A DNA stretch of 60,885 nt, counting the filler, from Malassezia furfur (lineage: Eukaryota): NCBI GenBank assembly GCA_052055015.1. It is 11 parts of 11 records of this genome, joined end to end, with 100 filler letters (N's around TTAATTAATTAA, not from the genome) between each part and the next. Parts side by side here need not be neighbours in the genome. Positions count along the whole stretch, not along the records: positions 5,608 to 11,112 come from JBQJIT010000595.1; positions 11,213 to 16,685 come from JBQJIT010000597.1; positions 16,786 to 22,249 come from JBQJIT010000598.1; positions 22,350 to 27,802 come from JBQJIT010000600.1; positions 27,903 to 33,346 come from JBQJIT010000601.1; positions 33,447 to 38,867 come from JBQJIT010000602.1; positions 38,968 to 44,379 come from JBQJIT010000603.1; positions 44,480 to 49,889 come from JBQJIT010000604.1; 3 more parts are not named here. One strand, 5' to 3'. Positions 5,608 to 60,885 of the stretch are shown here, one piece after another. The notes beneath the pieces were generated by a model. It made no database searches. It was not told the origin of the DNA and saw only the letters and a list, made by a program, of their open reading frames with translations. Both the position numbers and the translations under genes were made by a program. Within the stretch, counting starts at the first letter, position 1. Every line of letters begins with the position of its first letter.

Positions 5608-7437
5608 TGCGCCGGCGCGTCCAGGTCGCCGCTCGGCGCAGGGTCGGGCGGGGGCGCCGGCGCCGCCTCCACATGGACCTCGCGCGGTGCGTCTTCGATA
5701 GGCTCGGGTTCATAGGTCACGTCGGCGGTCGACATGGCGCCTTGGTTGCGGCGCCCAAACGCAACGAGCAACGCGGCCCGCAGCGCATTTTCCGAGTCGT
5801 CCGCATCAATGTGGGCGTCGACGCGCTCGGCCTGCTTTTCCTGCTCGAGCGCACGGCGCGTCATGCGCTGCATCTCGCTGTACTCTTGCGCGGCTGCATC
5901 CTCTTCCATCGCCCACTGCTCGTCGTACCAGGCCTGGCAGTCTGTGCTGATAACGGTCATTCCCTTGGGGATTTCCGAGGCGGGGCGCATCGACGGCGGA
6001 GGTACACGGCGGGGCTTGACTTGGGAAGACGGCGTCGCGCTCACCACCAGCTCCGACGGCACAATGGGCGGTGCTGCGCGCGACGGTTGGTTGCGGCGTT
6101 TGCGGTGCCCGACAGTGGTCCGGGCCAGCATACGTGCCGCAATGTTTTCCAACGTAGCATCCGCCGCAGGGGGTATGTGTTCTGGCGCACTGTGCAGCGC
6201 CGATTCCTCTTTGGCCGGTAAGAGGTCCAAGGACCCACCGCCCGGCGGCAAATCGGGCGTCGGCATCGCATGTACGGGCGCCTCGTGCTGGGATAGCGAG
6301 AGGATGCGCTGCTTTTCGCGGCGCTTTTGGTTTTTGCGCCGGGTGCGTGCTCGTCCCTGCCCCGGGGGAACATACTTGGGCGAGGAAGGCTCGGCGGGGT
6401 CGTCGTGCTGAATGTCTTCGACGCTAGGTGCGTCAGATGCGTCATCGGCGTCATCTGGGCGGGCATCATTGACAAAGACGTGGGTATGGGACGACGGGGA
6501 TGTGGATGCACTGCCGTCAGCGTCAGAGTCGGAGGTGGAATCGAAGCTGCTGTCGGAGCTGCTGTCGGAGCTTCCGTCAGAGCTGTCATTGGAGCTGCTG
6601 TCGGAGCTGTTGTCGGAGCTGTCGTCGGAGCTGTCGTCGGAGCTGCTGTCGGAGCTGTCATCAGAGCTGTCGTCGGAGCTGTCATCAGAGCTTTCATCGG
6701 AACTGGAGCTGGCGTCTGAGCTGGAGCTGGAGCTCGCACTGGAACTTGAGCTGTCATCGGAGCTGTCCGAGCTGTCCGAACTGTCCGAACTGTCCGAACT
6801 GTCCGAACTGTCCGAACTGTCCGAACTGCTGCTCGAGCTCGCACTCGAGCTGGTGCTTGCGCGTTTCGTCGACTCGGCGCGTGCGCTCGACCCATTCCGC
6901 ACGCTCGTCGCACTCGCAGGCCGCTTCAGCGGCGGCAGCTTCCCTTGCGTCTGCTGCTCCCACTCGCGCTTCCGCTGCGCAAATGCGCCCATTGCCGCGT
7001 CGAGACGACTTTGTGGCATCATGGGCATCGGCAATTCCGTGTCAGCGCTACGCGCATTGGCTGCGCGCATCGACTGGGCAATACGACTGGCCTCGGCGAG
7101 GACGTCGTCGTCGTCCGTACGCTGCCGTTTGTGTGGGCGCTCGTGCAAGGTAACGCTGTGTGAGCGAGTTAAGGACGTACCTAGCGACCTCTCCGTCACG
7201 GAGGATGTCGGACCCGAACTCGTCCAGGAGCGCAAAATCGTCGACCGAGAGGACCAATGCGTCCGGATCGAGGTTGTCGAGGATCGCAGCCGGATGGTGC
7301 CGGCGGAGCGCCGCGAGGATGCGTGCGCGCACATCTGCCAACGACTCCTCACCCGTGCGCACCGGCACGACAAACTGTGCAGCCGGCAGCGGCGCGCACG
7401 CACGAACGCGCACACGCGCGCGACTCGCCGAGCTCAT
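5608..7437 (-). CDS. Coilin-like nuclear protein with Ser/Asp-rich repeat, 3'-truncated
   Basis: ATG 7437. A 25-nt intron at 7156-7180 joins an N-terminal globular domain (RVRVRAC..LADVRARI..LVLSVDDFALLD..ILRDGEV) to the long SSD-repeat ORF with a basic RARTRRKNQKRR motif. Gene model is solid; the family call is inference. Confidence 0.6.
6541..6852 (-). repeat. Coding tandem repeats (9-nt GAACTGTCC and 12-nt GAGCTGTCGTCG-type units as read on +) encoding SSD/SSDD
   Basis: Directly visible tandem units within the coilin-like CDS. Confidence 0.9.
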
Positions 7438-7494
7438 CTTTCGACGCGGTGTGGAGGTCGGCCGAGGCCCTCTTCCAGCTTGGACGGTGCGAGG

Positions 7495-8380
7495 ATGGCA
7501 CCGGGCCCCTCCGCGGCATGGATCCACGCCATTGATGCGACTTATGCGCTCTTTGAGCAGAAAGAGAACCGCGATGCATACCCCGAGCTGGCCGACAAGG
7601 TCGCGTCCGCGGTGCAGATCATTGAATCGACGATCGCGGAGCTAGGGTGCGTAGTGCCTCGACTGACGCAGCGTGGAGCGGTGTGCACTGAGTTTCAATG
7701 GCGGCAAGGACTGCACGGTGCTGGCGCACCTGCTGGCGGCGGTGCTGCGGCGGCATACACATGCGGGGCCCACGACGCTGCCGCGCCTTGAGTCGCTGTA
7801 TGTCGCGTGCCAGTCGCCGTTCGCCGAGGTCGAGCAGTTTATTGCGTATGCGGCGAGCGCCACGACGGGCTACAATATGGACCTGCACATGGAGCAGGGC
7901 TCGATGAAGGCTGCGCTAGCAAAATACCTCGATGGCGAGCCGGGCGAGGCGCTGGCGCCCGTCGACGCGTCTGGAGCGAACGAGGCACAGCCCCAGCCGC
8001 GCAATGTGCAGGCGATGTTCATCGGCGTGCGCGAGACCGATCCGCACGGCTCGACGGTCGGCGTGCGCTCGCCGTGTGACCCAGGGTGGCCGCAGATCCT
8101 GCGTGTGCACCCGATCCTCGACTGGGACTACGCGACGGTGTGGTCGTTTCTGCGGTGCCCCGTGCTGGGGACGCCGCCGTCGCCGCTGCCTGCGTACGTG
8201 GGCGGCGGCGGCGCGCACGGTGTGCCGTACTGCTCGCTGTACGACCAGGGCTACACGTCGCTGGGCAGCACGTACAATACGCGGCCGAACCCGCGCCTGC
8301 TGGTCGCCGGGACCGAGGCGACGTACCGCCCTGCGTTTGAGCTGCGCGATGCGGCGCTGGAGCGCGCGGGGCGTGGGTAG
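7495..8380 (+). CDS. FAD1: FAD synthetase (PAPS-reductase family)
   Basis: ALSFNGGKDCTVL, GVRETDP, HPILDW, YCSLYDQGYTSLG; 25-nt intron 7647-7671 restores the frame. Confidence 0.93.
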
Positions 8381-12515: not shown

Positions 12516-13040
12516 TTAGCCCCGCGACGGCGCCGGGGCGCGCTGCTGCAGCGCGAGAATCTGCGTCAGCGCAACGGCGCACCTACCTCCTCCTTGATCG
12601 CGTCACGGTTCGCACTGAGCGTCGTGATCTGCTTCTCAACACGCTGCCTGCACACAGGGTCAGCACTGCACCGCGCGCATGCGGGGTAGCGGGACGTACA
12701 GCTCGGTCTGGATAAACTCGATGCGCTTCGTCACATTGTCGCTCGCCTCCTGAAAGTCTTGCGGAAGCAGCACAGGGCCCGCGCGCTTGTACACGCGTGT
12801 CTCGGGGCCGGAGCGCACAAACTCCTGCACGACGTGTCAGCACCGCGCACACGACGCGCGACGTACCTGCTGCACCTGCTGGTTCTCCGAGAGCTGCGAA
12901 AGCAGCTGCTGCTGCAGATCCACGACCGTCTCAAACTCTGTGCACGCAGTGTCAGCCTCTGTCCTGCACGTCTCCTACGTACGCGACTGCGCCTCTTGGA
13001 ATTTCGCGATCGCTGGCTTGAGCGCGTCCGTCGGCGTCAT
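12516..13040 (-). CDS. YKE2: Prefoldin subunit 6, five exons
   Basis: Not in the ORF track as a unit. Introns 12938-12982, 12825-12866, 12648-12699 and 12561-12586 give ..QLLSQLSENQQVQQEF..VYKRAGPVLLPQDFQEASDNVTKRIEFIQTEL.. Confidence 0.85.
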
Positions 13041-19700: not shown

Positions 19701-20397
19701 GATGATCTGGAAACACGCGCCGAGCGCCTCGGCGGCCGCCTCACGCACCGCGACTTTCGGGTCGCGCAGCGCGACCCAAATATGGTCAATCACGCGCCCG
19801 ACGTAGGCGTGGAACAGGTACGGCACGTTGCGCGCGATCTCTTTGATGATCAGCACCGCCGCATACCGCCCGTTCTCGTTGCGGTCGCCCTGCAGAAAGT
19901 CGAGCGCGCGCAGCACCTCGAACTCGATAAACTGGTCGCCCAGCGAGTGGCCGCCGTGCTTCGACACGCGGCCCAGCACCTTGGCCGCGGCGATCATCAC
20001 CTGCGGGTCATTGCACGGCAGGTTCGGCTTGAGGTATTGGTAGAAGCGGTACAGCCGCGCGCTGTTGTCCTCGCTCTCGAGCCCAATAAAGTTTTCGATC
20101 GCGGTGATGCCCCCGAGCTTGCTCGCGGTCTGCACGCTGTGGGTGAGCTCAATGATGCGACGGTTCAGCTCATTGTTGAACGCCTGGAGCCGCTCGCCCT
20201 TGAGCTCCGAGGTCATGTACGAGGCAAAGCTGCCGAGCTCCTTGCCTGCCTTGGTACGCGTGTCCTTGTCGCTGGGTGAGCCGTCGTGTGACGTACCGGC
20301 TCTTGAGCTCCGTAAAGATCCGCGACAATGTCTCGGACGGCTGCATCGACTGTGATACCACAGACGGTGAGCCCGTGATTGACATGGGGGAGATCAT
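16786..20397 (-). CDS. TOR: TOR kinase, N-terminal HEAT region, 3'-truncated
   Basis: RYAAVLIIKEIARNVP, NPAYVMPSLRK, LGILGALDPYRHK, VNQQHLKAAWD..DWREWLRR..ESPSHALRAC; 25-nt intron 20272-20296; start 20397 or 20385. Confidence 0.95.
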
Positions 20398-20945: not shown

Positions 20946-22249
20946 ATGAGTAGCCCGCTGGTGTTTGCCTCTGAGCTCGCGGGACACACGGGCGACGTGC
21001 GTGCGCTCGCGGCGCACCGCACGCCGGACGGTGTGACCCTGCTGCTCTCCGGCTCGCGCGACCAGACCGCGCGTCTGTGGATCCGGCGCACGGACGGGTC
21101 GTTTGAGAGCGTCGTCATCGACAACAGCGGCAACGGCTTTGTGAACGCCGTGGCGTTCTTTGAGGATATCGATGGGAAGCGTACGTAGACCCGCTGACGT
21201 CCCAGTGTATGCGCTGACAGGCGGCCAGGACGCGCTCATCAACGCGTACCTCGTGTCGATCAGTGGCAACGGCCACGTCAAAGTGTCGAGCACGCCGCGG
21301 TTCACACTCGTGGGCCACGCCGACAATGTGAGCACGATCGGCGTGTACGGCAGCGAGTACATCGTGAGCGGGTCGTGGGACGCGACCGTCAAGGTGTGGA
21401 AGCACTGGGAATGCGTCGAGACCTACACCAAGCACGAGCTGGCGGTGTGGAGTGTGCTGCCGATCGACGCGAACCGCTTCGTGTCGGCGTCCGCGGACAA
21501 GGGCGTGTACTTGTGGGCGATCGAGAAGCCGCGCGAGCTGCTTGCGTCGTACACGGGTGCGACACAGCCCGTGCGGGGCCTCGCGCAACTCTCCGCGTCG
21601 GCGCTGGCGGCGTGCGGCAACGACGCGCAGATCCGCATCTACCCCCTCGACGTCTCGGGCGACGTGCCGCCGCAGGCGAGCATGGGCGGGCACACGAGCT
21701 TTGTGTATGCACTCGCGTCGCTTGGGCCAGACACGCTCGTGAGCAGCGGCGAGGACCACACGCTGCGGGTGTGGCAGCGCGGGGCACTGGCGCAGGTGAT
21801 TACGCTCCCGGCCATCTCGGTGTGGTGCGTGTGTGCGCTGCCGAACGGCGACGTGGCGTGTGGCACGAGCGATGGGCAGGTGCGCATCTTTACGCCGGAT
21901 GCCGCGCAGACGTCGGCGGAGCGCATCGCCGCGTTTGAGGCGTCGGTCGCCGGCCAGGTACTGGCGGCCGCCGAGCTCGACGCCGACGTGCCGAGCGGCG
22001 AGCGCGCGCTGCTCGAGCAGCCGGGCGCGCACGAGGGTGCGACGTGCATCGTGCACGACGGCAGCCGCCGCGAAGTGTACCGCTACAGCACGCACGCCAA
22101 GGCGTGGAAGGCCATCGGGCAGATTACCGAGGCGGCGGGCGCCTCGCAAAAGAAGACGCACAACGGCCAGGCGTACGACTACGTGTTTGACGTGGACGTC
22201 GAGGACGGCGCGCCGCCGCTCAAGCTGCCGTACAACGCGAACGAGAACC
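20946..22249 (+). CDS. DOA1: Doa1/Ufd3 (PLAA) WD40-PFU ubiquitin-binding protein, 3'-truncated
   Basis: WD40 repeats followed by YDYVFDVDVEDGAPPLKLPYN (PFU domain); 25-nt intron 21181-21205. Confidence 0.93.
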
Positions 22250-22565: not shown

Positions 22566-22581
22566 TCCGACGATCTATAGC

Positions 22582-22942
22582 CTACTTCTTCTGGCCGTTG
22601 ATACCGAGCAGCTCGACATCGAACACGAGCGTCGAGTTGGGGGGAATGACTGCGTTAGACAGGGCACGTACCAGGCGGGAAGCCGCGGGGGCCGTAGCCG
22701 TAGTCGGGCGACACGATGAGCTTGGCGCGCTCGCCCAGCGAGAGCTGCGGCACACCCTCGTCCCAGCCGCGGATCACACGGCCGACGCCGATCTTGGTCT
22801 GGAACGGCTGGCCGCGGTCGCGCGACGAGTCAAACTTGTTGCCGTTCTGCAGCGTGCCGACGTAGTGAATGTCGACCGTGTCGCCGGGCTTGGGGAAGTT
22901 CTTGCCGTCGCCGGCCGAGATGCGTTCCACTTCGACACCCAT
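22582..22942 (-). CDS. FPR1: FKBP12 peptidyl-prolyl isomerase
   Basis: [36 protein letters not shown]; a 22-nt intron at 22650-22671 restores [19 protein letters not shown]. Confidence 0.96.
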
Positions 22943-23184: not shown

Positions 23185-23716
23185 TTATCCGTAGTTGAGG
23201 CTGCGTCAGTACCACGGCCGTGCGACGTACCGGAAGATGTCGTTGAACACGTAGAACGAGCCGTTCTCGGGCAGCAGCGTGAACGACTGGCTGAACTTGA
23301 GCGGGTTCTGGCCGTCGTCGACCTGGTGTGAGCGCGCGCACGATGCACCGACGTACCAGCAGCATGCCCGTGACCAGCACGACGAGCGCCTGCCCGTCAC
23401 CGGTCGGCTGGGCGTCGCGCGTGTCGACCTTGTGCTGCACCTTTTGGAAGGGGAGGCTCTGCGGTTAGCGTGGGCCCAGCACGACGCGTACGTACGACGA
23501 GCTTCTCCACAATAGCCTGCGCGCCCTGCGTCTGCGCGCCCTCGAACGTGAGCATGGACTGCGGACGCTGATCGGTCAGTGACGCGACAAAGGACGTACG
23601 TAGAGCGGCGCGAGCTGCGAGCGGTCCGTGTCGAACGTCGAGTAGTAGTAGTCGGTGAACTAGCGCGTGTCAGACTCATGTCGGCGCATACGTACCTGCT
23701 GAGCGACTTGTTCCAT
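23185..23716 (-). CDS. NTF2: Nuclear transport factor 2, six exons
   Basis: Introns 23660-23695, 23568-23599, 23459-23495, 23323-23356 and 23201-23230 give [53 protein letters not shown]. Confidence 0.93.
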
Positions 23717-24430
23717 GGCGCACACGCGATACAACACACAAGAGGCGAGGAGACGTTGCGGCCGCCCGCCGCGTGCGCAAGACCACGTGGCATTCGGCCG
23801 ACGTAACGGTGTCGCCGTAGCGCCTCCACCGTGTCACGGCGGCGGCGGCGGCGGCGGCGGCGCCAGCAGGGTACGCGTCGGCGTGTCGCGCGCGCACGGT
23901 GCCTTGCACACGTCGGCCAATGAGCATAATCCGCTCACCGCCCCGGATCGGCGTACGACGCATGGCGCGGCGCCCATGGCACCGCGGCGCGTGAGAAACG
24001 ACCGGTGGATGTTGAATGAGCTTCTTCTCCACAGGTGGAGGCGTGGACGTGGGCGGCAGCGAGGCGCGTGTCGTAGGGCGTGTTGCCGTAGGTAGATGTT
24101 GCCAATTCATTTGTGGTGCAGCGTGATGGGCTACACGGTCACGGCGCCCCGGGGCTGTGGGCACGGCGCGGTGCGGGGTGCGTGCATGCACGCTGGGCGT
24201 GGAGTTTGGGCCCGCTACATAAAAGATCTGGCGCGCGCGCGCGGCTTGCGCTCCCGCCGTACGTAACGTCGCTGGTGTTGGGAGGGGTTCTGTACCGTCC
24301 GACAGGCAGTTGCTCTTTGATTGTACACCGCGCACCCTACGAGGGAGCGTTCTTTGTGGTACACCTTTGTGCTTCTTCGTCTACGTAAGTATTGACTAAC
24401 ATTTCCAGGAAACTCGCGCTGTGGGGAAAG

Positions 24431-26032: not shown

Positions 26033-26192
26033 CCGTGCGAATTTTGGTTTCGATTTTTCTTGCGTGTGTGTGTGTGTAAGTGCGGGGCGCTGACGCAGTT
26101 CCTTTTTCTCGTAGATAGCATGTTCGGATCCGCACTAGACAATGAATGCAGTTTTTTTTGTGTCTTACCCATCCTACGTGAGAGCACTACCA

Positions 26193-26940
26193 CTACTTGC
26201 GGCGCGACGCGGCGGCGGCCGCCTGGCGGCGCGTGCGCACCGTCGGCTGCTGCGGGAGCCACTCCTCGTGGTTGGCGGCGGCCGGCTTGGCGGGCTGCGT
26301 GGGCTGCGTGCGCTTGGCAGGCGCCTTCGGGCGCACGTACGCGGCAAGGTACTGGGTGTACACGAAGTAGGCGACGCCCGCGAGCGCTGCGGCCATCACC
26401 GCGTACACCGAGAGGAGCTGCACGTCGAAGAACGAGGGCGCAGGCTCCTCGACGACGACCGTGCCGCGGTACACCGGGAGGTTGTAGCGGCGCGTGTTGC
26501 CCTGGTCGAGCACCTTGACGCGGAACTCGACGTCGAGCGACTGCGGCTTGAACTCGGGGTAGAAGTCGAACGGCACCTGCACGGGGTGCGCCGCGGCGCT
26601 GGCGATCGGCACGGCCTTGAGGTGCGTCGTGGTCATCTGGGTGAGCGAGAGGGCGACGTACGTTGCGGAGCACGCGCCCGCGCTGGCCGTCGCGCTTGGC
26701 CGGGTTGAGGAACGCGCCGGTGATCTCCTCGAGCACCAGCGCGCGGTCGGCGCCCGGCGGGTGCGAGAAGGAGAACACGACGCGGTTCGGGCGGCCGTTC
26801 TGCACGAGCGAGAAGGGGTTGTCAGGGAAGGTGGTGATCACGTTGAGCTCGGGCGCCTCGTCGCCCGCGGCGGCGAGCGCGGCGGGCGCGAAGCCGAGCA
26901 CGGCGGCGGCAGCAGCACACAGCAGCGCAGGCAGGCGCAT
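26193..26940 (-). CDS. Translocon-associated protein alpha (TRAP-alpha/Irc22-like)
   Basis: Signal peptide, FPDNPF..NG..N, single C-terminal TM, EEWLP; 25-nt intron 26637-26661. Confidence 0.75.
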
Positions 26941-36006: not shown

Positions 36007-38688
36007 ATGCACGTACCGCCGGACGGTCCGCGGCGGCGGCCGACCGACCCGATCCCCATCCGCTCTCCGTCGCGGAGGCGGAGTTCGGGGAGTGCCAGCA
36101 TTGCGTCTGACTCCAGTACACCCTGGTCGTCGTCGCCCGCGTCGATCACGCGCTCGTTCACCGAGTCGATCCAGGGGCTCCAGAGCCGCTATGCAGACTG
36201 GAAGCAGTCTACCAAGGCATTCCGGCAGATGCGCGCCGACGGACCGCGCGATACGGCGCCGGACATGCCAGCACCCCCGCCGTCGCCCGTGGGTACGTCG
36301 CTACTCGAGCCCCTCGAGCGCATCGTACCCGACGTGCTGCGCCACGGCGAGCCGCTGCTGAAAGTCACCCAGAACAAAGTGGCGCAGCGCACTTTTCGCG
36401 TCGACACCGAGTCGGCATCGATCGTGTGGGCGAGCAAAAAGAACAACCAGGTGCCGCTGTATGCGATCCGCGACGTGCGTCTTGGCGCCGAGGCGCAATC
36501 CTACCGGCATGCGCTGCAAATCGCCGACTCGCACGAGCCGCGGTGGATCTCGATCATCTACCAGACGCCCAAGGCGTACAAGGCGGTACACATGATTGCG
36601 CTCTCGCCCGAGTCGCTGCAGCGCTGGCGCGACACGCTGCTCAGCGTGCTGTTGCAGCGCCAGGCGCTACTGTCGGGCCATGTGCCGGCGGCGACAACGC
36701 AGTCGCACTGGCTGCGTGCGTCGTGGCAGCGCGACCAAGGCGCGCTGTCGATTGAGGATGTGGCGCGCCTGCTGCAGCGCACGGGCATTCAGTGTGGCGG
36801 CAGTGATCTGCGCATGCACTTTGACGCCGCCGACAAGGACCGCCGCGGCGTACTCCACTTTGAGGCGTTCCAGCGGTTTGTCGCGGCGCTCAAGCGACGC
36901 ACGGACGTCGAGGCTCTGTTTGCGCGCTGGACGTCAACCGATGTCTTGCCGCTTGCGGCCTTTACGGCGTTTGTGCGCGACGAGCAGCGTGAGACGTGGG
37001 ACGATGCGTACGTCCACGCGGTGTATGCACGGTATGCGGGGCCTGCCGGCATGTCGTGCGACCAATTTTTGGCGTTCTTGGCGTCGCGCGACAATGCGCC
37101 GATCACGGTGGTGCGCCCCGCGCGCCAAGAGGCATTGAACGAGCCGCTGAGCGACTACTTCATCAGCTCGAGCCACAATACCTACCTCGTTGGCGGGCAG
37201 TGGAAGGGCGACAGCACCGTCGAGGGTTACGTGCGTGCGCTGCAGCAGGGCGCTCGCAGCGTCGAACTCGACTGCTGGGACGGCCCCCACGGCCAGCCCC
37301 AAGTGACACACGGACGCACGCTCACGAGCAAGGTGCCGCTCGACGACGTGATTGCGGCGATTGCGCAGTACGCGTTTGTCGCATCGCCCTACCCCCTCAT
37401 TCTCTCGCTTGAGGTGCACAACGACGTTGCGCAGCAGGAGGCGATCGCCGCATCGCTGCACACACACCTCAGCCCGATGCTCGTCACTGAGCCGCTACCC
37501 GACGTGCCGAGCGGCACGCTGCCGAGCCCCGAGCAGCTACGCGGGCGCATCCTGGTCAAGTTTAAGGACTGGACGCTGATTCGTGCGATGGAGCGCGCAT
37601 TCGACCTCGCCGCAGACGATGTGCAGACATCCACGACCACGGACCACACCGAGTCCGAAGGCGACTCGCTGCTGGGCCACGCGCGCGGCCTGGTGCGGCA
37701 CATGCGGCGGCCGCTGCGCAAAGAAGAGACGGCGCGGCGCACCGAGCACCCTGTGGCGCATGCGCTCTCGGCACTGCTCGTGTACACGGTCGGTGTGCGC
37801 TTCCGCGGGATCAACAAGAAGGAGCAGTACGCCGTGGAACATGTGTTTTCGCTGTCGGAGCGCAAGGCGTTGCGCATGATCCGGCAGAGCAACGCGGACC
37901 TCGTGAAGCACAACGTGACGCACCTCACGCGCGTGTACCCCAGTCTCTCGACGTTGAGCCGGCTGCACAGCAGCAGTGCCAACTTTCTGCCGAACGACAT
38001 GTGGGCCGCCGGGTGCCAGCTCGTGGCGCTCAATTGGCAGACGCGCGACCGCGGCATGGAGATGAACCAGGCATTCTTCGCGTCGAGCAACGGTGGGTAC
38101 CGACTCAAGCCCGAGGGGCTGCGTGTGCGCTCCTTGTTAAAAAATGCTGCGGGCACAGTGTGTGTGCGGCTGCACCTCACCATCGTCTCCGCGCAGCAGC
38201 TGCCCATGTCAAGCGACGGCGAGATGAGCACACACGTCCACCTCGCCGTCCACACGCCGATGCAGTGGGGCAAGGCCGCGCGCGTCCTCGACACGGGCCC
38301 CGGCGGCGTGCCGGCCTCGCCGCGTCTTTCGCACCCTGCGTCGTTCCGCACGGCGAGCGCCGCGTCGGGTTTGGCGCCGCAGTGGAACGCATCGTGCACG
38401 GTGCAGCTCGACCTGCCCGCACCGCTCGCATCCGAGGCGGCGCAGGCGTCTACCCTGCATGCGGCGACGCGCGGCCTGCTTGACCTGTGCTTTGTGCGCT
38501 TCGCCGTGTACAACGATGCGGACGCCGGCAACGCGGTGTCGATCGGCTCGTGCACCGCCAATCTCGGCACGCTCCGCGCGGGCTATCGCCATCTGCCGCT
38601 GTACGACACACAGCTCTCGCGGCTACTCTACGCGACGCTCTTTGTCCATACCCACTATACCCTCGAGCGCGCGCCGCCGCCTTTGTAG
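36007..38688 (+). CDS. PLC1: Phosphoinositide-specific phospholipase C
   Basis: PH and EF-hand regions, X box (YFISSSHNTYL, ELDCWDG, HGRTLTS), Y box (LTRVYP, GCQLVALNWQT), C2 (GYRHLPL). Start uncertain. Confidence 0.95.
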   Translation: MHVPPDGPRRRPTDPIPIRSPSRRRSSGSASIASDSSTPWSSSPASITRSFTESIQGLQSRYADWKQSTKAFRQMRADGPRDTAPDMPAPPPSPVGTSLLEPLERIVPDVLRHGEPLLKVTQNKVAQRTFRVDTESASIVWASKKNNQVPLYAIRDVRLGAEAQSYRHALQIADSHEPRWISIIYQTPKAYKAVHMIALSPESLQRWRDTLLSVLLQRQALLSGHVPAATTQSHWLRASWQRDQGALSIEDVARLLQRTGIQCGGSDLRMHFDAADKDRRGVLHFEAFQRFVAALKRRTDVEALFARWTSTDVLPLAAFTAFVRDEQRETWDDAYVHAVYARYAGPAGMSCDQFLAFLASRDNAPITVVRPARQEALNEPLSDYFISSSHNTYLVGGQWKGDSTVEGYVRALQQGARSVELDCWDGPHGQPQVTHGRTLTSKVPLDDVIAAIAQYAFVASPYPLILSLEVHNDVAQQEAIAASLHTHLSPMLVTEPLPDVPSGTLPSPEQLRGRILVKFKDWTLIRAMERAFDLAADDVQTSTTTDHTESEGDSLLGHARGLVRHMRRPLRKEETARRTEHPVAHALSALLVYTVGVRFRGINKKEQYAVEHVFSLSERKALRMIRQSNADLVKHNVTHLTRVYPSLSTLSRLHSSSANFLPNDMWAAGCQLVALNWQTRDRGMEMNQAFFASSNGGYRLKPEGLRVRSLLKNAAGTVCVRLHLTIVSAQQLPMSSDGEMSTHVHLAVHTPMQWGKAARVLDTGPGGVPASPRLSHPASFRTASAASGLAPQWNASCTVQLDLPAPLASEAAQASTLHAATRGLLDLCFVRFAVYNDADAGNAVSIGSCTANLGTLRAGYRHLPLYDTQLSRLLYATLFVHTHYTLERAPPPL

Positions 38689-42103: not shown

Positions 42104-42421
42104 GGTGATGACGAGTGGTGTAAACGGAGGAAAACTCGGGTTCCGTCTGGTACGTTGATGAGAACCGCAATCACACACGGCACGTGCCGGCGGTCTTCGG
42201 TGCGGCGCCGCGCGTCGTTGGTTGGTCCGCGAGCATGTCCGGTTCCGGCCGAGGCGTGCAAAAAAAAAAGTAGATGACCGCACCGTGCCTCGGCAGACGC
42301 GTGGACCGACAGGGTCCATGCGCCGCGCCCGCGTGCGGTCGAGCCACGCCGCGGCACGCGCGTGCACTGGAGCACGAGGCGCCAATGTGGAGCACGATGC
42401 TGGGCAACCCTGTTCACTACG

Positions 42422-45615: not shown

Positions 45616-47009
45616 TTACGCGTTGGACGGGGTGAGCTGCGTCCAGGAGCTAAACACCGGCAGGCTGCTCGGCTCCAGCTCGCTCATACCGCCCGAGGGG
45701 AAGGCGCCGTCGTGGGCAGGCAAGGAAGTACTGTACAGACCGAACGTGCTGTCGGGGCCCTCGAGATCGCTCAAGGACCGCGGCTCCATGCTCGGCTCAA
45801 GCCCATCCAGCGACGCCGGCGCCAGCTGCGGCGACAGCGGCGAGAAGTTCATCGACATCGGGCCGCCAAGCACACTCGATCCGCCCTCGCTCATCGTATT
45901 GGTATCCACGGAGGACGGGGTGTTGGCCATCGTGCTCGGCAACTGTTGTGTATCACTGAACAGCTTCAGCGGGGTGTCCAGCGTCGTGTTCAGCTCGTTC
46001 GGGTCCACCATGGTCGACTCGCTCTCGAGCGACGCAAGCGACATGCCCGACAGCGACTGCCCAAAGTCGGGGAACGGCGGCACCGTCGCGTACGAGTCGG
46101 ACGGCGACAGCGACGCCTGCTTGGCACCGTTCGCACCGCCGTCCATCCACGACATGCTCATCAGCGACGGCGAATCGGTGCCGATCGACGCAGGCGGCGC
46201 ACTCAGCTCCAGCAGCGACGGGTCCGCCGTGGACCGCAGCGAGGCGATCGAGTCCTGCTGCGGCGACATGGCATTCGCCGCGCCGAGCTCCACCGGGGTC
46301 ATCGTGGGGGGGACTGCCCATGCACCCATCTCCTTGGCCGGAATCCCCTGCGTGGTGGCCCAGGCAGGGGGGATCGTCGCTTCCGGCGCCGGAGCAGACT
46401 GCATCAAGGCCGCCGACAGATCGGCGGGGTTCGCTTGCGTCACCGCATTCATCTGTGCCACGGGTATGGTAAACGTCGGCGACTGGGCTTTGGGATCAAA
46501 CGGCAGGTGCATCGGGGTTATGCCCGTCGCACCCATCTTCTCGTCGGCAGAATTCTCAGACGTATGATTGTTCGGGTTGTGGTGCGCCGGCGTCGAGGCG
46601 GCCATCCGGGCAGCCTTGCGCTCGCGGCTGAGACGCTTGCGCTCGCGCGAGAGCAGGTTGTCGTGCTCCGAGACACGCTCGTACTCGCACTTGCGCTGCA
46701 GGCGCGTGCAAGTATAGCACGACGGCTGGGCGCCATCACAGCGGATTTTTCTGATCGTTAGATGGCGCATCATACGTACCGATGGCGGCAGTGCACGCAT
46801 GCCATAGCGACACGGCAGCGGAACTTGTTGGGTCCAGTCCGTCCGTTTTGAGCATCGCGCGAATCGTGTTTGCCGTGCGACCCTTCATGGTTGGGGGGCG
46901 AGGCCGACGAATCGTCCGAGCGCGACTTGGAATCCCCGTCCGCGTGGAAGTGGACAGGCGATCGGCCCAGGGCAGAGTTATGTTCGGAAGATACAGCGGC
47001 GGCAGCCAT
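45616..47009 (-). CDS. Zn(II)2Cys6 transcription factor
   Basis: ACVHCRHRKIRCDGAQPSCYTCTRLQRKCEY assembled across a 29-nt intron at 46751-46779; Ser/Met-rich acidic tail. Confidence 0.9.
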
Positions 47010-47579: not shown

Positions 47580-48610
47580 ATGCTCCGCCTGGCCTGCATA
47601 GCATCGCTTTTAGAGGCACTGGTGCAGTCTGGGGATGAGCATTTTGGTGCAGATACAGCCGTCCTTTCGCTGTACCAAACTGCGGAACTCTACGCCTATG
47701 CAACGCGGGAAGAGAAGCACACGCCGCCCGCACCCAAGCGCAGCCTAATGGCATACACACCAGATACCCCACTCGTCGGCGAGGAGCTCGCACGCGCATA
47801 CTCGGCTATCGCCGTCGCCGCATGGCGCGACCACATCGCACGGTCAGGCCTCGTCACGCCAACGACGCGTACAGCGCCGCGCGCGCGCCCAGAGACCCCG
47901 CCCGAGGGACGTGCGCAGATGTCAAGGCGCTTTGCGCCTGTACACCGTCAAGAGGCCTCGAGCGGCTCCGACACACCGCAGCCGCGCGCGCTCAGCAGCT
48001 CGGTGCGCTTCCAGCCGTCGGAGAGCGCCGACGGCGCCGACGCAGAAGAGCGTCTGTCGACGCCGGACACGGACGGCGTATTAGAGCCCGAGACGCAACC
48101 GATCCAGTTGGAGTGCGAGGTATGTTGCGCATTGCGCTCACGCAGTATGGACGCCTATTGGTGATGCCCGTGCTTATCGCGAGCCTGGACAACACGACCG
48201 AGTCGGGCCGCACGCGTCGCCTGAACCGCGCGTCGCTGCAGCGGCACGACCGGAGCCGGCGTACGTCGCATACGGGCTCGAGCGATGCAGCACTGAGCCG
48301 GCCGAGTCCCGCGATTTTGCGCCTGATGGGCGGTGTGGCCGATGAGGGCACGACCGACCCCGGTTTCTCGACCGAGGAAGAGGCGCCGTCCGGCGCCGAG
48401 ACCGACAAGGACTCGGTGCGCTCCGGGACACGGCGCGGCGAGAATGGCACCGTGATGCTGCTCACGCTGCACACGCGCGATGGCGCGGCGAGCGACGCAC
48501 AGCAGGTCTGGCGCACGCTGCAGCACCAGGCGCTGTGTTTCGCTGAGGCCAACGCCGCCGACGGCCGACCGCTGGCGGAGCTGCTGCAGCGCACGGTCCC
48601 AATCAGCTAG
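47580..48610 (+). CDS. Putative LAMTOR2-like roadblock protein with low-complexity insertions
   Basis: A 26-nt intron at 48120-48145 joins two ORFs; blocks MLR.., LYAYA, ARAYSAIAVAAW, IQLECEYGRLLVMPV, MLLTLH appear colinear with LAMTOR2 by eye. Confidence 0.6.
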
Positions 48611-48807: not shown

Positions 48808-49384
48808 ATGGGGGTGACGTGCGTGGTGGTGATGGTGCGTGGCACCCGTGCTGACGCAGGGCGTGTCCGGCGCGGGCAAGTCGACCGTCGGCTCAGAGCT
48901 GGGCGAGGCGCTGCATGTGCCGTTCCTGGACGCAGACGATCTGCACAGTGACGACGCCGTGCACAAGCTGTCGACGGGCGTGCCGCTGACCGACGACGAC
49001 CGGTGGCCGTGGCTGCGCCGTGTGGCCGCGACGACCAAGGAGCGTGCTGCGCAGAACGAGCGGCACATGTGCGTCGTGGCCTGTTCGTCGCTGAAGCGCG
49101 CGTACCGCGACGTGCTGCGCGCGACGCCCGACGCGCGCTTCGTGTTTGTCTACCTGCGCCTGGCGCCTGCGCTGCTCGCCGAGCGCCTTGCGCAGCGCCA
49201 GGGCCACTTTATGAAGGCGGCGATGCTGCAGTCGCAGCTAGATACCCTGGAGGAGCCGCGCGCGGACGAGGGCGACGTGTGCGTCGTGGAGATCACCGCG
49301 GGCATGGCGCGCGCGGCGGTGATCGACGCGGCCGAGGCGCAGCTGCGTGCGTGCCTCGGCGCGGCCGACGGCGCGGCCAAGTAG
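48808..49384 (+). CDS. Gluconokinase (GntK/IdnK family)
   Basis: VVMGVSGAGKST P-loop formed after removing a 25-nt intron at 48835-48859; DADDLH, PLTDDDRWPWL, ACSSLKR.YR, HFMK..MLQSQLDTLE. Confidence 0.93.
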
Positions 49385-49989: not shown

Positions 49990-50761
49990 GTTTCTGCGTG
50001 AGCCACGCACACGTACCCAAGCAGACGCCCGAACGTCTTGAGTCGCGCCGTGCCGGTGCAAGTCGGACGCGTCAAACGGCGTCTGGGTTAGGGCGCGACG
50101 TACCGATGGGACCGGCATCCGGAGCACTTCGCGCGCATACTGCCGATCATACAGGCAGTTTCTGCGTGAGCCACGCACACGTACCCAAGCAGACGCCCGA
50201 ACGTCTTGAGTCCGCGCTTGATCGAATCCGTGATGGCCTCCTTCTTGCACTGCGCCGTAAGCGGACGTGACGCAGCGTACCTTTTCGAGTGCCGCGTGCT
50301 TTCCCCGCGCGCCCTCGGTGTGGCCGTAGCCTACATCCTCGTGGTACGTTCCGTCGCGCAGTGTGATGCGCACGATCGCACTCACGCCGCAGTTGCACCG
50401 CCCAGACTCGGGATGCACGTCAAGCTGTGTCAGGACGCGTACATACGTAGTCAATGTCGAGACTCGTCACGCTCGTCGACCAGCCGTTGAAACCAAACAC
50501 CTCGTTCGCCAGATCCACGACCTTCCATCCCTCGATGTACGTTAGCTTCGGCCCGCCGCCCGGCCCAGGGCGCTGCGAGAGGTATTCAGGGCCGAGCCGC
50601 TGGTTCAGCTTGCACTGCAGCGTCGCGAGCCGCGTCGCGCTCCACATCGGCAGGCCCGTGTCCGGATCGATGTCTCCTGTGAGCGCCGAGCCACCGGCGC
50701 CCACTGGGAACGCGTCGTGCGGCGCGCTGGGCGCAAAGGGTTCACGCGTCGTGCCGTCCAT
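49990..50761 (-). CDS. RAD52: Rad52 N-terminal domain, 3'-truncated
   Basis: LGPEYLSQRPGPGG..YIEGWKV..LANEVFGFNGWS, DGTYHEDVGYG, KEAITD..KR..FG..LGNCLYD; introns 50425-50446, 50250-50280, 50162-50184, 50083-50103. Confidence 0.95.
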
Positions 50762-50803
50762 CGCGTGCGCCACGCCGACGCGTCGTGTTGAATGGATCAC
50801 GTG

Positions 50804-51603
50804 CTACCAAAATTTAATGTAGACGATGAACAGGAACAGCAGCGCGAGCGCGCCGAGGCTGCGTGAGGGCGAAAGGGGACGTACGGTGCGTACTTGCGGA
50901 TCATGGCGTCCACGTTGATCTTGCGCGCAGCGCGGCGATACTTGAGCGACTCGTCGCGCAGCGACGACGAGAGCGACGACATGTCTGGGTGAGCACGGCC
51001 GCACAGGCACACGTACGATCGAGACTATCGCCACGCCATAGCAAATCCTCCATGTTCTTGGTCATAATCTTTTGCACGTCCTGCAGGTCCTCGTTGAGCC
51101 GGTCGAGGTTCGAGTGCGTGACGCTTTCGGCGGTGCGCGAGTCCGCGTAGAGGCGCTTGGTACGCTGCATGAAGGTGTCTGGCGTGAGCGTCGCACCACC
51201 TACCAAACCCGACAAATGCATACGGCCGGAGGTTGCGCTGCTGCACCTGGTGCCCGTACGAGAGCGCAAACTCCTTGGCGAGCTCGTCGAGGTAGCTGAA
51301 TGCGAGCTTGCGTGGGTACGACTTGTCCGTGATGGTGAGGTACACGACCGACCGTGGGTCTCCTGGCGGCGGCTGGACGAGGTAGCTGCGTGAGTGGGCG
51401 GTGCGCGCGCGCGCGACGTACTGCAGCGCCATCGGTCCGCTCTCGATCGTGCAGCGCGTCTCGGACATCGGCATGAGCTTCCGGAAAATCGTCTTGGCCT
51501 GCTGCTTGTATCTGGTTAGGTCGACGCCCGTCTGGTCATCGTCGACGCTCTGCGCGAGCGGGAGCGCATCCGAGACACGCACGACCTGCGTGGAGCGCAC
51601 CAT
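50804..51603 (-). CDS. SEC22: R-SNARE Sec22 (longin, SNARE and TM domains)
   Basis: DALPLAQSVDD, SYPRKLAFSYLDEL, IMTKNMEDLLWRGDSLD, C-terminal TM; introns 51386-51421, 51179-51203, 50985-51016, 50859-50884. Confidence 0.95.
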
Positions 51604-51668
51604 GGCGATCCGGAGGGAGGCGCGTGGAGGCCACGTGGGTCAGGGCGCGGCGGCTCGCCGTGACCACC

Positions 51669-52931
51669 ATGGACGCCAGTGCACCGCAGGAGGCCGATGG
51701 CCCGCCGCCGTTCGCGCGGCTGATTCTGGATCTGCGTGGCGTGTACTTTGTGATCGAGCGCGAGACGCTGATGAGCCTGCCCGAGTCCATTCTGCTGTGT
51801 CTCTTCCCGAACGGCCTCGTCCTGCCCGAGGGCAACCCCGACGAGACGGGCGACACGACGATGCAAGACGAGCACGTATACCACGTCGACGTACGTACCG
51901 TGCTGACACCAGTTTGATGCGAATTGCTTGCAATATGTCCTCTCCTTCTTCCGGCGCGCGCAGGAGTACTTCTACGGCACCGACAAGGCGCCGGGCGTCT
52001 ACCGCGGCATGGGCCGCGGCGCCAACATCCTCGATTTTGCCGACCCCATGCAGGGCGCGGGCGGGTTCGGCAACCACTTCTACCTCCCGCTCTTCCACAA
52101 GCAGGCAATCATCGTGCTGCGCGAAGAGCTCGAATATTTCACGATCGCGCCCAAGGGCATGGCGCGCTCGGCCGTCGCGCGGCCGCCGGTGGGCAACCGC
52201 CCGCCGCAGGCCTCGGAGGAGTTTGCGCACCTCAAGGACGCGTGCGGCGATGTGCTGCTGCAGCGCCGCCAGATCTTCACGGCGCTCCAGCGCAACATCA
52301 ACAAGGAAAACAACGTCGCCGAGCAGCACCTCATCGATATGCTGTGCATGAGCGGCTTTGAGCAGGACGACCTGTGGGGCTACCGCGCGCGCGAGGCGAA
52401 CCGGTGCAGCATCACCAGCACCGCCATGGTGCTCCTCAAGACGGGTGTCACGCACCGCGGCGAGCTCCCCGAGGGCCGCGCACCGCACCAGCCGGCGCCG
52501 CGCAAGCCGATCGGCGTCGAGCGCACCGGGGTGGATCCGGACGCGGGGCTCGAGCCACTCGACACGCATGTCTCTGAGGAGCAGCTCGGCGAGTGGGTCG
52601 ATGATGCACAGGGCGGCTCGCTGCGTGTGAACCAGCACCAGCTGAACACCACGCAAAAGCTGCTCCTCTTTTGGCGCAAACCAGCGGTACGTGCGCCCAC
52701 ACTGACCGCAGCGGAAATGCTGGTGGGACGGCATCGACTTGGTGGTGCCGAGCGACGGCATCGCGACCAAACCGCAGCCCGCACCGTCCTCGGCGACGCT
52801 CGGTACCCTCTCGCGGCAGGAGCGCGCATGGCTCGAGCAGGGCAAAGGCCTGCTCGTCCGTGTGTGGGTCCGCCGGATCTGGACGCTCGAAGTGAGCCTG
52901 GTACGTGGGCATGGGCTGACCGCAGATTTGA
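51669..52931 (+). CDS. WHI2: Whi2-like BTB-domain stress/nutrient regulator
   Basis: LMSLPESILLCLFPNG, IIVLREELEYF, EQHLIDMLC.SGF, KLLLFWRKPARKCWWD, WTLEVSLI; introns 51891-51912, 52687-52711, 52901-52925. Confidence 0.9.
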
Positions 52932-55692: not shown

Positions 55693-55758
55693 CGTGCGTG
55701 TTGATGTGCCGCGTATGCTGACTCAGCAAAGGCGTGCCAAGGTTCACGGGCGACAACC

Positions 55759-56101
55759 ATGTCTTCGTACATCTACTTCCGCGGTACGTACGGCGCCTGC
55801 TCACGCGCTAGTCACCGGCACAGTTCAGGGCGTGTCGTTCCGTCAGAGCACGGTGCAGCAGGCGAATGCGCTTGGCCTGCGTGGCTGGGTGCACAACGAG
55901 CCGGACGGCTCTGTGTCCGGCGAGGCGGCCGGCCCGACGGAGCACATCCAGAAGCTGTACGCCGCGCAACGCTAACCCAGGCGCGACTACCTGCACCACG
56001 GCCCGCAGCAGGCGCGCGTGGACAACGTGGACATCATGTTTATCAAGAACCACGACCTGAGCCAGTCGACGCTCCCGGTGCCGTTTGAGCTGCGTGCGTA
56101 G
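55759..56101 (+). CDS. Acylphosphatase
   Basis: FRVTGTVQGVSFR..GLRGWVHN.PDGSV.GEA.G..LHHGP..ARV; introns 55784-55811 (28) and 55957-55980 (24). Confidence 0.92.
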
Positions 56102-56120
56102 AAAAAAAGAAGGAAGGCGT

Positions 56121-58634: not shown

Positions 58635-58716
58635 GCAGGAGAAAGCCCAGTGACGCGCTGCGCCTCCCCACGTAACGGGCCCAGCCCCGGCGCGCAGCCT
58701 CCACGTGCCTCCACGC

Positions 58717-60885
58717 ATGTCCCTGTCCGTGTCGCAGCAGGCGGCCGTGCAGTGCGACGCGGCGCGTCCGCTCCAGATCCTCGCAGGGCCGGGGTCGGGC
58801 AAGACGCGCGTGCTCACAATGCGCGTGGCACACCTCTTGCTCGACGCCGAGCGCGATGCGCGCGTCCAGCCGCAGCACTGCGTCGTCGTTACCTTTACGA
58901 ACAAGGCCGCGAACGAAATGCGCACGCGTCTCACCGCGCTCATCGGGCCGGAGCGCACACAGAAGCTCGTGCTTGGCACCTTTCATGCGCTGTGCGCCAT
59001 GTTTCTGAGGCGGCACTGCGGGCGCATCGGCATCGACCACAATTTCACGATCGCCGACACGGACGATGCGTACGTTCTGCGATGCTTACGCAGGAAACGC
59101 CTCATGAAAGAGGTACTCGACGCCTCGCCCGACGTCCCGCTCAAGCCCGAGCAGGCGCTGGCCGCCGTCTCGCACGCCAAGGCGCGCAGCCGCCGACCTG
59201 AAGACCTGCGCCACACCGTCGACCAGGCGGCGCTCGCCGAGGTGTACGCTGCGTACCAGGCGCGGCTACGCGCGAGCAATGCGCTCGACTTTGACGACCT
59301 GCTCATGTGCGGCACACAGCTCTTGCGCGAGCACCCGTCGGTCGCCCAGCACATCGCCCACGGTACGTGGCGCGTTCTCACCCAGTGCTCGTCGACGAGT
59401 TCCAGGACACGAATGCGGTGCAGTACGAGCTGATGCGCCTGCTCTCGGCCGCATCGGGGCACGTCAGCGTGGTCGGCGATCCCGACCAGAGCATCTACAG
59501 CTGGCGGAACGCCGAAGTCGGCAACCTCGCCAAGATGTGCGCCGACTTCCCCGACGTCCGCCGCGTGTTTCTCGAGGAAAACTTCCGCAGCACACAGTCG
59601 ATCCTCGACGCGGCCATCAAGGTGATGCGCCAGGACACGCAGCGCATCGACAAGGACCTGCACACCGCCCAGGGTCGCGGCGCGCCTGTTACGTTCCACA
59701 CATTTGCCTCGGCTGACGAAGAGGCGGAGTACATTGCGCTCGAGATCCAGCGCAATGTCGAGCTGGCGCAGCCTATGCTCACGTATGCCGACGTGTGCAT
59801 CCTGCTGCGCTTCAACGCGCTCAGTCGCGCGCTCGAGGCCGCACTGCAACGGCAGCGCATCCCCTACCGCGTGATTGGCGGCCCCAAATTCTTCGACCGC
59901 GCCGAGGTCAAGGACTTGCTTGCCTACCTGCTGCTCGTGGACAATCCGGCATACACGCCGGCACTCGTGCGCATCATCAACGTGCCGCGCCGGGGGATCG
60001 GCGCCAAGACCGTGCAGGACCTCGAGGCGCTCGCCGCCCAGCACGGCCTCACCCTCCATGCGTGCATCGAGCAGCTGGTCGATGGCAATGCAGCGCTCGG
60101 TGCCGGTGTGCGCGCGTCGGTGGTGCAGTCGCTGCAGGTGCTGGTACGCACGCTGCGCCGCCTGCGCACCGCGGCGCACGAAGGCACACCGGTGTGCGAT
60201 CTGCTCCAGCTGTTGGTCACCGAGCTTGACTTTCAGACGCATCTGCGCCGCGATGACGACGCCGAGTCGCGGTGGCAGAACGCGCAGGAGCTGATTAGTT
60301 TTGCGGCATCGACCGACACGGGGGGTCTCTATGAAGAGGTCGGCGACGACGGAGACGTCGCCAAGGCAGATGACGCAGACGTCGATGCGGGGCAGGAAGA
60401 CGATGAAAGCGTCGCCGACGCTTCTCCCGCGAAGCGCAGGCGCACCGCCGACACATCCCCCACGCCCCTGCGCAAGTTCCTCGAAAACAGCATGCTGGCG
60501 ACCGACACGGCCGCCGGCGTCGAGGACAGCGCGAAGGTGACCATCTCGACGTGCCATGCGGCCAAAGGCCTCGAGTGGCCCATCGTGTTTGTGCCGGCCG
60601 TCGAGGAGGGCACCTTCCCCTTCTATCGCTCCGTCACGCCCGACGAGCAGCGCGAGGAGCGCCGGCTCCTGTACGTCGCCATGACGCGCGCCGCGACGAA
60701 CCTGTACCTCAGCGCCACTGCCCGCCGCCTCGTGGCAGGCTCGTGGCAGTCACGCAGTGTGAGTGCGTTCCTTGCGCCGCTCCTGCCCCCGTCGCAGCGC
60801 GGATCGCAGCCGTCTGGGACGCCCGACGCCATCGCGTGGTGCTTTGGCGCGCCCGATGTCCAGCGCGCGCTGCCGGATGCCGCGG
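58717..60885 (+). CDS. SRS2: UvrD/Srs2-family DNA helicase, 3'-truncated
   Basis: LAGPGSGKT, VTFTNKAA, GTFHA, VDEFQD (after intron 59363-59385), VGDPDQSIYSWR, ENFRS, STCHAAKGLEW, EERRLLYVAMTRA; probable in-frame intron 59070-59093. Confidence 0.93.

Follow-up and report, generated by a model that had tools for sequence, protein, structure and literature searches.

Very short GT-AG introns with a fused branch and 3' splice site module in genes of Malassezia furfur

Results

Protein-coding genes of the window and their introns

We analyzed a 60,885-nucleotide (nt) stretch of DNA from the skin yeast Malassezia furfur (NCBI GenBank assembly GCA_052055015.1), hereafter the window, which consists of 11 pieces of about 5.5 kb each, with N spacers around the linker TTAATTAATTAA between pieces, and has a G+C content of 63-68%. 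Its genes include FKBP12 (FKB1), NTF2, SPO7, SEC22, RAD52, WHI2, an ATP sulfurylase and an SRS2/UvrD helicase, and they are interrupted by tiny GT-AG introns, mostly of 21-26 nt (Table 1), which exist far above the chance level and whose removal restores reading frames and family profiles. A preliminary description of the window had proposed Malassezia as the genus of origin, in agreement with the 258-amino-acid (aa) exon of WHI2 and the 90-aa exon of FKBP12, which are 100% identical to the M. furfur NCBI proteins GLX27_002523 (P0001) and CBS14141_004119 (P0241), respectively; after M. furfur, the best named protein matches come from other Malassezia species. An Rfam search of the window matched 0 families, hence no small nuclear RNA (snRNA) lies in it, and ARAGORN found 0 transfer RNAs.

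To list introns irrespective of reading frame, both strands were scanned with the pattern GT[AG]NGT .. CTNA[CT] .. [CT]AG, which gave 58 matches of up to 60 nt with a tight cluster at 21-26 nt (two of 21 nt, eight of 22, four of 23, two of 24, nine of 25 and four of 26). Matches of 18-30 nt numbered 34, against 2.91 +/- 1.66 expected and a maximum of 9 in 100 dinucleotide-preserving shuffles, and because of this excess the matches cannot be put down to chance even though the branch motif is itself required by the scan; about 3 motif matches are expected by chance in the window. A relaxed scan contributed two more introns with a GTACGC donor, at 50250-50280 and 55957-55980.

The matches were then subjected to a frame test, in which a codon log-odds model trained on 22 long open reading frames (ORFs) of the window with high G+C at third codon positions (GC3) was asked which frame codes in the 60 nt on each flank. 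Among 36 matches of up to 30 nt, 2 lie at a piece edge and 4 are multiples of three, leaving 30 testable, and the flanking frames were consistent with splicing only in 24 of these, with read-through only in 3 and with neither in 3 (binomial p = 2e-7 for 24/30 against a chance of 1/3); one of the 24 splice-consistent matches is 17 nt long and nested within a 23-nt match. The test discriminates, as seen from the 37-nt perfect motif (GTGCGT..CTCAC..CAG) at 43893-43929 on the minus strand, which scored as read-through and serves as a negative control: it is coding, the PP2C domain of an adenylate-cyclase-like gene running through it in frame in Pfam. Also rejected as introns were the matches at 48688-48726 and 50344-50392 and two nested variants of 17 nt, at 49994 and 50162, and 32353-32399 and 48819-48859 were rejected as longer alternatives to supported introns.

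Excision restores conserved domains and full-length products

For protein families, Pfam was given unaltered exon translations only and the profile coordinates were compared on both sides of each junction; among 13 single short exons, 7 gave no Pfam match (acylphosphatase exon 3, BIR exon 1 tail, SPO7 exon 2, SEC22 exons 1 and 4, Zn2Cys6 exon 1 and NIPA exon 1), and the acylphosphatase exon downstream of 55957-55980 has no match when taken alone. The four introns singled out in the preliminary description, at 22650-22671 on the minus strand and at 59363-59385, 48835-48859 and 52687-52711 on the plus strand, do run from GT to AG, and homology or a conserved motif supports the removal of each. 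Splicing of FKBP12 yields a 112-aa protein with the conserved C-terminal strand common to 7/7 full-length orthologues compared, and the FKBP_C profile continues over the junction; the UvrD-helicase profile of SRS2 continues from 2-209 to 217-271; the spliced translation of the gluconokinase-like gene gives the P-loop G-x4-GKS; and the spliced WHI2 model equals the NCBI M. furfur protein P0001, which already uses all three WHI2 introns. The last coding exon of WHI2 (52926-52931, plus strand) is a single codon and a stop; in the relative L001 the protein ends identically although no intron is present there.

Two further genes carry four introns each. The spliced RAD52 product aligns gap-free over junctions at aa 105, 153, 174.7 and 194 with proteins of Ustilago, Sporisorium, Serendipita, Pleurotus and Cryptotrichosporon, and the SEC22 model (226 aa) aligns over its full length with homologues of 215 and 218 aa, its four junctions being gap-free against closer homologues. 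Both genes lie on the minus strand, with the SEC22 stop (gene at 50780-51640) and the RAD52 start (gene at 49990-50803) a few dozen bases apart. The RAD52 locus also features a 54-nt exact direct repeat, 49990-50043 being the same as 50158-50211, which comprises 27 nt of exon, the whole 23-nt intron and 4 nt past it. The second copy stops exactly at the piece boundary, where the frame would differ, and a 99%-identical relative (P0121) has a different sequence in its place. The repeat has the look of an assembly artefact at a contig end, and a second intron is less likely.

Composition and anatomy of the curated introns

The curated list comprises 48 candidates, 29 with homology, profile or motif support, 13 whose support comes solely from the frame test or an in-frame stop and 6 that are candidates only. 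By length there are two of 21 nt, eight of 22, four of 23, three of 24, nine of 25 and four of 26 (30/48), the other 18/48 measuring 28-52 nt, which agrees with the earlier count of 31 of 47 at 21-26 nt to within one intron in every length bin. Among the 42 supported introns, median and mean length are 25 and 28 nt, 27/42 measure 21-26 nt, the G+C content is 64% and the density 0.70 per kb.

All 48 candidates have GT and AG ends by scan design, and the GT[AG]NGT donor required by the scan is present in 40/42 supported introns, GTACGC standing in the 2/42 from the relaxed scan. Donor hexamers are GTACGT in 28, GTGCGT in 5, GTAGGT and GTATGT in 3 each, GTACGC in 2 and GTAAGT in 1. The branch motif conforms to CTNAY in 42/42 and is CTGAC, CTCAC or CTAAC in 39/42 (20, 14 and 5, respectively), the remainder being CTTAC in 2 and CTGAT in 1, while 38 introns end in CAG and 4 in TAG. 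The branch A precedes the last intron base by 5 nt in 25 introns, by 6-8 nt in 13 and by 10-14 nt in 4, and the first AG after it is used in 42/42, a figure that is partly circular as the scan picked the nearest YAG. The 3' end thus takes the form of a fused 9-nt module, CT[G/C/A]AC-N-YAG, in which a polypyrimidine tract has no room because the branch A lies 5 nt before the first downstream AG. A comparable 3' architecture is known from the CTAAC-AG spacing of Yarrowia lipolytica. The spacer between donor hexamer and branch pentamer is 6-11 nt in 28/42, with the branch A at positions 16-21, so that short introns are laid out as 6 + N(6-11) + 9 nt and the 21-nt minimum as 6 + 6 + 9. Of the eight 22-nt introns, seven have the branch A at position 17 and one at 16, close to the distance of about 16 nt from the 5' end proposed earlier.

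Lengths of 22 nt (eight) and 25 nt (nine) predominate among supported introns of up to 26 nt, against two each of 21, 23 and 24 nt and four of 26 nt. In the same set, lengths of 3n, 3n+1 and 3n+2 occur in the ratio 4 : 17 : 6 (chi-square p = 0.004; small sample). In ciliates, introns of 3n length are under-represented. Four 3n introns of the window have no in-frame stop (32379-32399, 50083-50103, 51386-51421 and 59070-59093) and would add 7-12 residues if retained.

Three plus-strand candidates, at 24385-24408, 26064-26098 and 55694-55726, are motif-complete and lie in non-coding surroundings, each a short way ahead of a likely start codon; from this placement they may be introns of 5' untranslated regions (UTRs). 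A (GT)n run in front of the second provides several alternative donors, and the nested (GT)n variants at 26064-26072 were rejected as introns.

Short introns across the genus

That Malassezia introns are short, as the preliminary description had stated, is published for two species. The curated annotation of M. sympodialis ATCC 42132 lists 5350 introns that average 30 bp, and RNA sequencing (RNA-seq), mapped with introns of 10-2000 bp allowed, supports 99% of them (Zhu et al. 2017, PMC5389616). For M. restricta KCTC 27527, whose annotation set the shortest allowed intron first at 20 and later at 15 (PMC6473144), the mean is 37.2 and the median 30 bp (PMC9241646, Table 1); Malassezia genes have also been described as "containing very short introns" (PMC7426719). 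By our own arithmetic, 5350 introns in the 7.79 Mb of M. sympodialis (PMC5389616) correspond to 0.69 per kb, next to 0.70 per kb in the window; the two share the genus and a compact genome. The window's median of 25 nt, mean of 28 nt and peaks at 22 and 25 nt lie slightly below the published species averages. Very short Malassezia introns are therefore already documented, and those described here are not new as such. The preliminary description had said that published data with an identical 21-26 nt mode and a fully conventional spliceosome would remove the novelty, and the introns published for the genus largely do so. A literature search with little coverage of subscription journals found no study of the Malassezia spliceosome or splicing, and no work on ultra-short introns in basidiomycetes.

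Individual introns differ between species. In M. sympodialis, FKB1 is reported to be an intronless gene of 339 bp (PMC5654937), as opposed to the 22-nt intron in M. furfur FKB1, and the intron is therefore polymorphic within the genus. Scanning the WHI2 exon against metagenome contigs gave five loci. In a contig pair 97-100% identical to P0010 (NCBI "Similar to S. cerevisiae protein WHI2"), each of the three positions holds an intron, of 28, 26 and 28 nt, respectively; a relative of 59% G+C has the middle intron only, of 26 nt; and in a Malassezia relative of 51% G+C (L002) an intron of about 84 nt by our own count (about 2275-2358) occupies the site of the middle, 25-nt WHI2 intron, with a pyrimidine-rich 3' part and a 3n, stop-free length in frame, the last WHI2 intron being longer too. 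Intron positions are therefore conserved, while presence is variable and length species-dependent; miniaturisation seems to differ between Malassezia lineages and, going by these loci, may track G+C content.

Public gene models at tiny introns

Gene finders had been predicted to mis-annotate such genes, and several public Malassezia proteins are wrong exactly at tiny introns, in FKBP12, WHI2, RAD52 and SEC22-RAD52. The public M. furfur FKBP12 (P0241, 108 aa; locus 22560-22942, minus strand) departs from all orthologues right at the 22-nt intron, which it does not use, and has an aberrant tail in place of the conserved C-terminal strand; this tail, sought in the window, is encoded nowhere in it. 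In the two genes where public use of window introns could be compared, all three introns are thus used in WHI2 and the one in FKBP12 is not. In other species, the WHI2 protein of M. yamatoensis runs into the intron and is 7 residues short at the first junction, that of M. vespertilionis is without its last 12 residues, and the RAD52 proteins of M. psittaci and M. yamatoensis cease to match at junctions 105 and 153. "SNAP receptor" proteins of M. vespertilionis and Malassezia sp. CBS 17886 (542 and 664 aa) combine Longin, Synaptobrevin and Rad52 domains and are probably fused models of SEC22 and RAD52. No M. furfur RAD52 record was among the matches listed.

Table 1. Introns and intron candidates of the window, with the evidence for each (3n, length a multiple of three)
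Position	Strand	Length (nt)	Gene or class	Evidence
7156..7180	-	25	Unnamed gene	Full motif; frame test splice only
7647..7671	+	25	PAPS-reductase-domain gene	Frame test splice; PAPS_reduct from residue 4 of downstream exon
12561..12586	-	26	Prefoldin-like gene	Frame test splice; stop on read-through
12648..12699	-	52	Prefoldin-like gene	Frame test splice
12825..12866	-	42	Prefoldin-like gene	Full motif; 3n with in-frame stop; flanking exon matches Prefoldin_2
12938..12982	-	45	Prefoldin-like gene	Full motif; 3n with in-frame stop
20272..20296	-	25	Large HEAT-repeat protein	Frame test splice; HEAT repeats in downstream exon
21181..21205	+	25	WD40 protein	WD40 Pfam in phase-1 upstream and matching downstream frame; stop on read-through
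22650..22671	-	22	FKBP12 (FKB1)	FKBP_C profile 1-76 in exon 1, 81-94 in exon 2
23201..23230	-	30	NTF2, last intron	Stop on read-through; spliced product 124 aa
23323..23356	-	34	NTF2	NTF2 profile 50-81 / 85-116
23459..23495	-	37	NTF2	NTF2 profile 28-49 / 50-81
23568..23599	-	32	NTF2	NTF2 profile 5-24 / 28-49; frame test splice
23660..23695	-	36	NTF2, after codon 6	Full motif, in-frame stop; product runs from Met into NTF2 domain; exon 1 too short for profile
24385..24408	+	24	Candidate, probably 5' UTR	Full motif, A+T-rich; flanks score non-coding
26076..26098	+	23	Candidate behind (GT)n run	Motif only; stops in all flanking frames
26637..26661	-	25	TRAP-alpha-like gene	Frame test splice; GC3 0.98 and 1.0 on flanks
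29666..29687	-	22	Same gene as 29949..29970	Frame test splice
29949..29970	-	22	Long gene without Pfam match	Frame test splice; ORF continuous once spliced
31337..31358	+	22	SPO7	Upstream exon ends at Spo7 profile 32; frames consistent
31427..31461	+	35	SPO7	Downstream exon from Spo7 profile 66; frame test splice
31572..31593	+	22	SPO7	Spo7 profile to 104 before, 102-207 after, from residue 1
32379..32399	+	21	BIR-domain gene	BIR profile 23-60 from residue 1 of downstream exon; 3n, no stop
35886..35907	-	22	NIPA Mg transporter	Frame test splice, weak scores; NIPA profile in matching downstream frame
37155..37185	-	31	Weak candidate	Motif with CTGAT; frames splice-consistent, low scores
40662..40696	-	35	ATP sulfurylase	PUA_2 profile 2-35 / 36-158
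42147..42178	-	32	Candidate	Motif only; frame test neither
46751..46779	-	29	Zn2Cys6 factor	Zn_clus 10-34 from residue 1 downstream; splicing completes Cys pattern
48120..48145	+	26	Unnamed gene	Frame test splice
48835..48859	+	25	Gluconokinase-like P-loop kinase	Kinase profiles from residue 1 downstream; splicing restores G-x4-GKS
49994..50016	-	23	Candidate, piece edge	Inside 54-nt exact copy of 50158-50211
50083..50103	-	21	RAD52	Homologue alignment gap-free over junction aa 194
50162..50184	-	23	RAD52	Alignment gap-free over junction aa 174.7
50250..50280	-	31	RAD52, GTACGC donor	Rad52 profile 64-109 / 110-130; alignment gap-free
50425..50446	-	22	RAD52	Rad52 profile 2-60 / 64-109; alignment gap-free
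50859..50884	-	26	SEC22	Spliced product (226 aa) matches full-length homologues over its whole length
50985..51016	-	32	SEC22	Alignment gap-free at junction aa 175.3
51179..51203	-	25	SEC22	Alignment gap-free at junction aa 121.3
51386..51421	-	36	SEC22	Alignment gap-free at junction aa 60.7 with P0365, P0369
51891..51912	+	22	WHI2	P0001 maps 100% as exons 51669-51890 and 51913-52686
52687..52711	+	25	WHI2	P0001 equals spliced model; orthologous 26-nt intron in L001, L004
52901..52925	+	25	WHI2	P0001 and two orthologues end like spliced model; 28-nt orthologous intron in L004
53212..53237	-	26	Ribosomal S10-domain protein	Frame test splice; directly after S10 domain
55694..55726	+	33	Candidate, upstream of acylphosphatase start codon	Motif only; frame test neither
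55784..55811	+	28	Acylphosphatase	Acylphosphatase profile 6-55 from residue 1 downstream; frame test splice
55957..55980	+	24	Acylphosphatase, GTACGC donor	In-frame stop would end domain at profile 55/85
59070..59093	+	24	SRS2/UvrD helicase, probable intron	Full motif; 3n, no stop; Pfam matches either way; predicted from signals only
59363..59385	+	23	SRS2/UvrD helicase	UvrD-helicase profile 2-209 / 217-271; stop on read-through

Discussion

The interruptions described here are very probably ordinary U2-type GT-AG spliceosomal introns, part of a very-short-intron population that spans the genus and is already in print and in part annotated. In such a scheme the 5' site, mostly GTACGT, would pair with U1 and U6 and the CTNAC motif with U2, after which the first AG past the branch point would be used, and miniaturisation would amount to genome compaction with strong consensus signals kept and no new mechanism. 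Normal U1/U6 and U2 pairing is favoured because the cis signals are canonical and strong; and because introns of 28-52 nt, as well as the 84-nt WHI2 intron of L002, carry the same signals, one machinery must serve short and long introns. Several points weigh against this reading. Excision is something we infer from the DNA, with the public protein, whatever its own basis, as an added indication for the introns of WHI2. Among the 48 candidates, six are candidates only (three probably 5' UTR or non-coding, two weak and one in the repeat at a piece edge), and for 13 of the 42 supported introns the evidence is confined to the frame test or an in-frame stop. In the 3n introns at 32379, 50083, 51386 and 59070 the frame cannot separate an intron from in-frame coding sequence, and for those at 32379 and 59070 homology support is weak as well. 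The motif alone over-calls, because 43893-43929 is a clean motif and yet coding. Finally, that the spliceosome is conventional is an assumption made by analogy.

Could the interruptions instead be frameshifting assembly errors, pseudogene lesions or chance motifs? The chance match within the PP2C domain, the candidate in the suspicious 54-nt repeat at a piece end and the roughly three matches expected by chance would fit this view, but we consider it barely credible for the set as a whole, given a tenfold excess over shuffles and the combination, in every supported case, of GT..AG ends, a branch motif and a frame-restoring length. Moreover, introns of differing sequence sit at the same positions in independent contigs from other Malassezia species, the spliced products reach full length and align with distant homologues without gaps, and at least 29 junctions with homology or profile support contradict it. 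A more substantial question is raised by intron size, since at 21-26 nt the 5' site and the branch might lie so near each other that U1 and U2/SF3 could not both be bound at once. Assembly could then be reduced or re-ordered, for example by loss or truncation of U1-70K, Prp40, SF1, U2AF or parts of SF3a/b, or by a hand-over of the 5' site that precedes firm binding of U2. The spacer of 6-11 nt in 28/42 introns with the branch A at positions 16-21 speaks for this possibility, as does the 5-nt distance between branch A and 3' end, which leaves no polypyrimidine tract for a U2AF65/Mud2-type protein; slightly smaller spliceosomal proteins, undetected SR proteins and altered branching-factor regions are reported for Stentor (PMC9505925), and the literature search turned up no Malassezia spliceosome study that would speak to it. 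Set against this are the canonical and strong cis signals throughout, the signals that longer introns share with short ones, and the snRNAs or U2/U2AF components checked for and kept in Stentor (PMC9505925) and myxozoans (PMC13644364), and we regard reduced or re-ordered assembly as unlikely. The window holds no evidence on the spliceosome itself, and the claim of an altered one rests on spacing arguments only. The spacing argument, with a branch A 15-16 nt downstream of the intron's first G, is nevertheless a legitimate question, and one already raised for ciliates. In its strongest form, the introns would be at a hard physical minimum of 21 nt (a 6-nt donor, a 6-nt spacer and the 9-nt fused module), at which co-occupancy by U1 and U2-SF3a/b is impossible and to which the spliceosome has adapted. 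We think this improbable; were it so, the adaptation may consist of shortened SF3a/b or branching-factor regions, U2AF-independent choice of the 3' site or early release of U1, and the preference for 22 and 25 nt might reflect allowed geometries.

Comparison with other tiny-intron systems places these ordinary-looking introns in a length class shared with several lineages. Ciliates, with introns of about 25 nt in Paramecium (PMC5014332) and 15-16 nt in Stentor (PMC9505925), resemble M. furfur, as do myxozoans and dicyemids with medians of about 22 nt, in length and in posing the same question of U1/U2 co-occupancy and a tightly looped lariat. In Stentor all snRNAs are present, spliceosomal proteins are slightly smaller, SR proteins were undetected and branching-factor regions are altered (PMC9505925), and in myxozoans, where the median is 22 nt, U2 snRNA, U2AF1 and U2AF2 are conserved (PMC13644364). 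Myxobolids and Dicyema differ in having reduced splice-site motifs and a branch site made of a few weakly conserved A (PMC13644364), whereas in M. furfur the fungal branch motif CTNAC is still strong and stands with a GTACGT donor in an intron of 64% G+C, and its branch point can for this reason be assigned unambiguously. With intron-poor eukaryotes (Irimia and Roy 2008, PMC2483917) the window shares a strong branch consensus, a fixed and very short distance from branch to 3' end and use of the first AG. Ustilago maydis, a relative, differs, with a weak branch consensus and introns seemingly of about 95-127 nt, as read from columns whose headings lie outside the available text (PMC2483917); the tight 3' architecture would then be a development of the Malassezia lineage. 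At a density of about 0.7 introns per kb, the tiny introns of M. furfur are spread across ordinary genes.

Within the fungal lineage, microsporidia have introns of 23-25 nt in which branch and 3' element are fused, and together with Cyanidioschyzon they count among the lineages with a reduced spliceosome, marked by the loss of snRNAs or of many core proteins. M. furfur is unlike them in its intron density, as microsporidia have a handful of introns (23-52 nt in Encephalitozoon, mentioned in PMC13644364), a spliceosome that is strongly reduced and a low splicing efficiency (median about 25%; PMC13644364). The available text of the 2026 paper (PMC13644364) lists ciliates, microsporidia and dicyemids and has 0 occurrences of Malassezia, as has that of the survey of intron-poor eukaryotes (PMC2483917), and the genus thus seems overlooked in the tiny-intron literature despite readable signals and genetic tools, Malassezia being transformable and editable (PMC7426719; 10.1101/638429). 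Should a spliceosome adapted to minimum-size introns prove true, M. furfur would be the first tractable fungal model for a lariat loop of 16-17 nt, given its clear branch motif and the availability of editing. For the introns as we read them, the consequences are practical: at tiny introns, the public proteomes of Malassezia show incorrect C-termini, truncated proteins and fused genes, and one of the affected records is that of M. furfur FKBP12, the receptor of the FK506-type drugs that have been studied in the species. The main value of the finding lies in this annotation warning and in the reminder that Malassezia is a tractable tiny-intron system.

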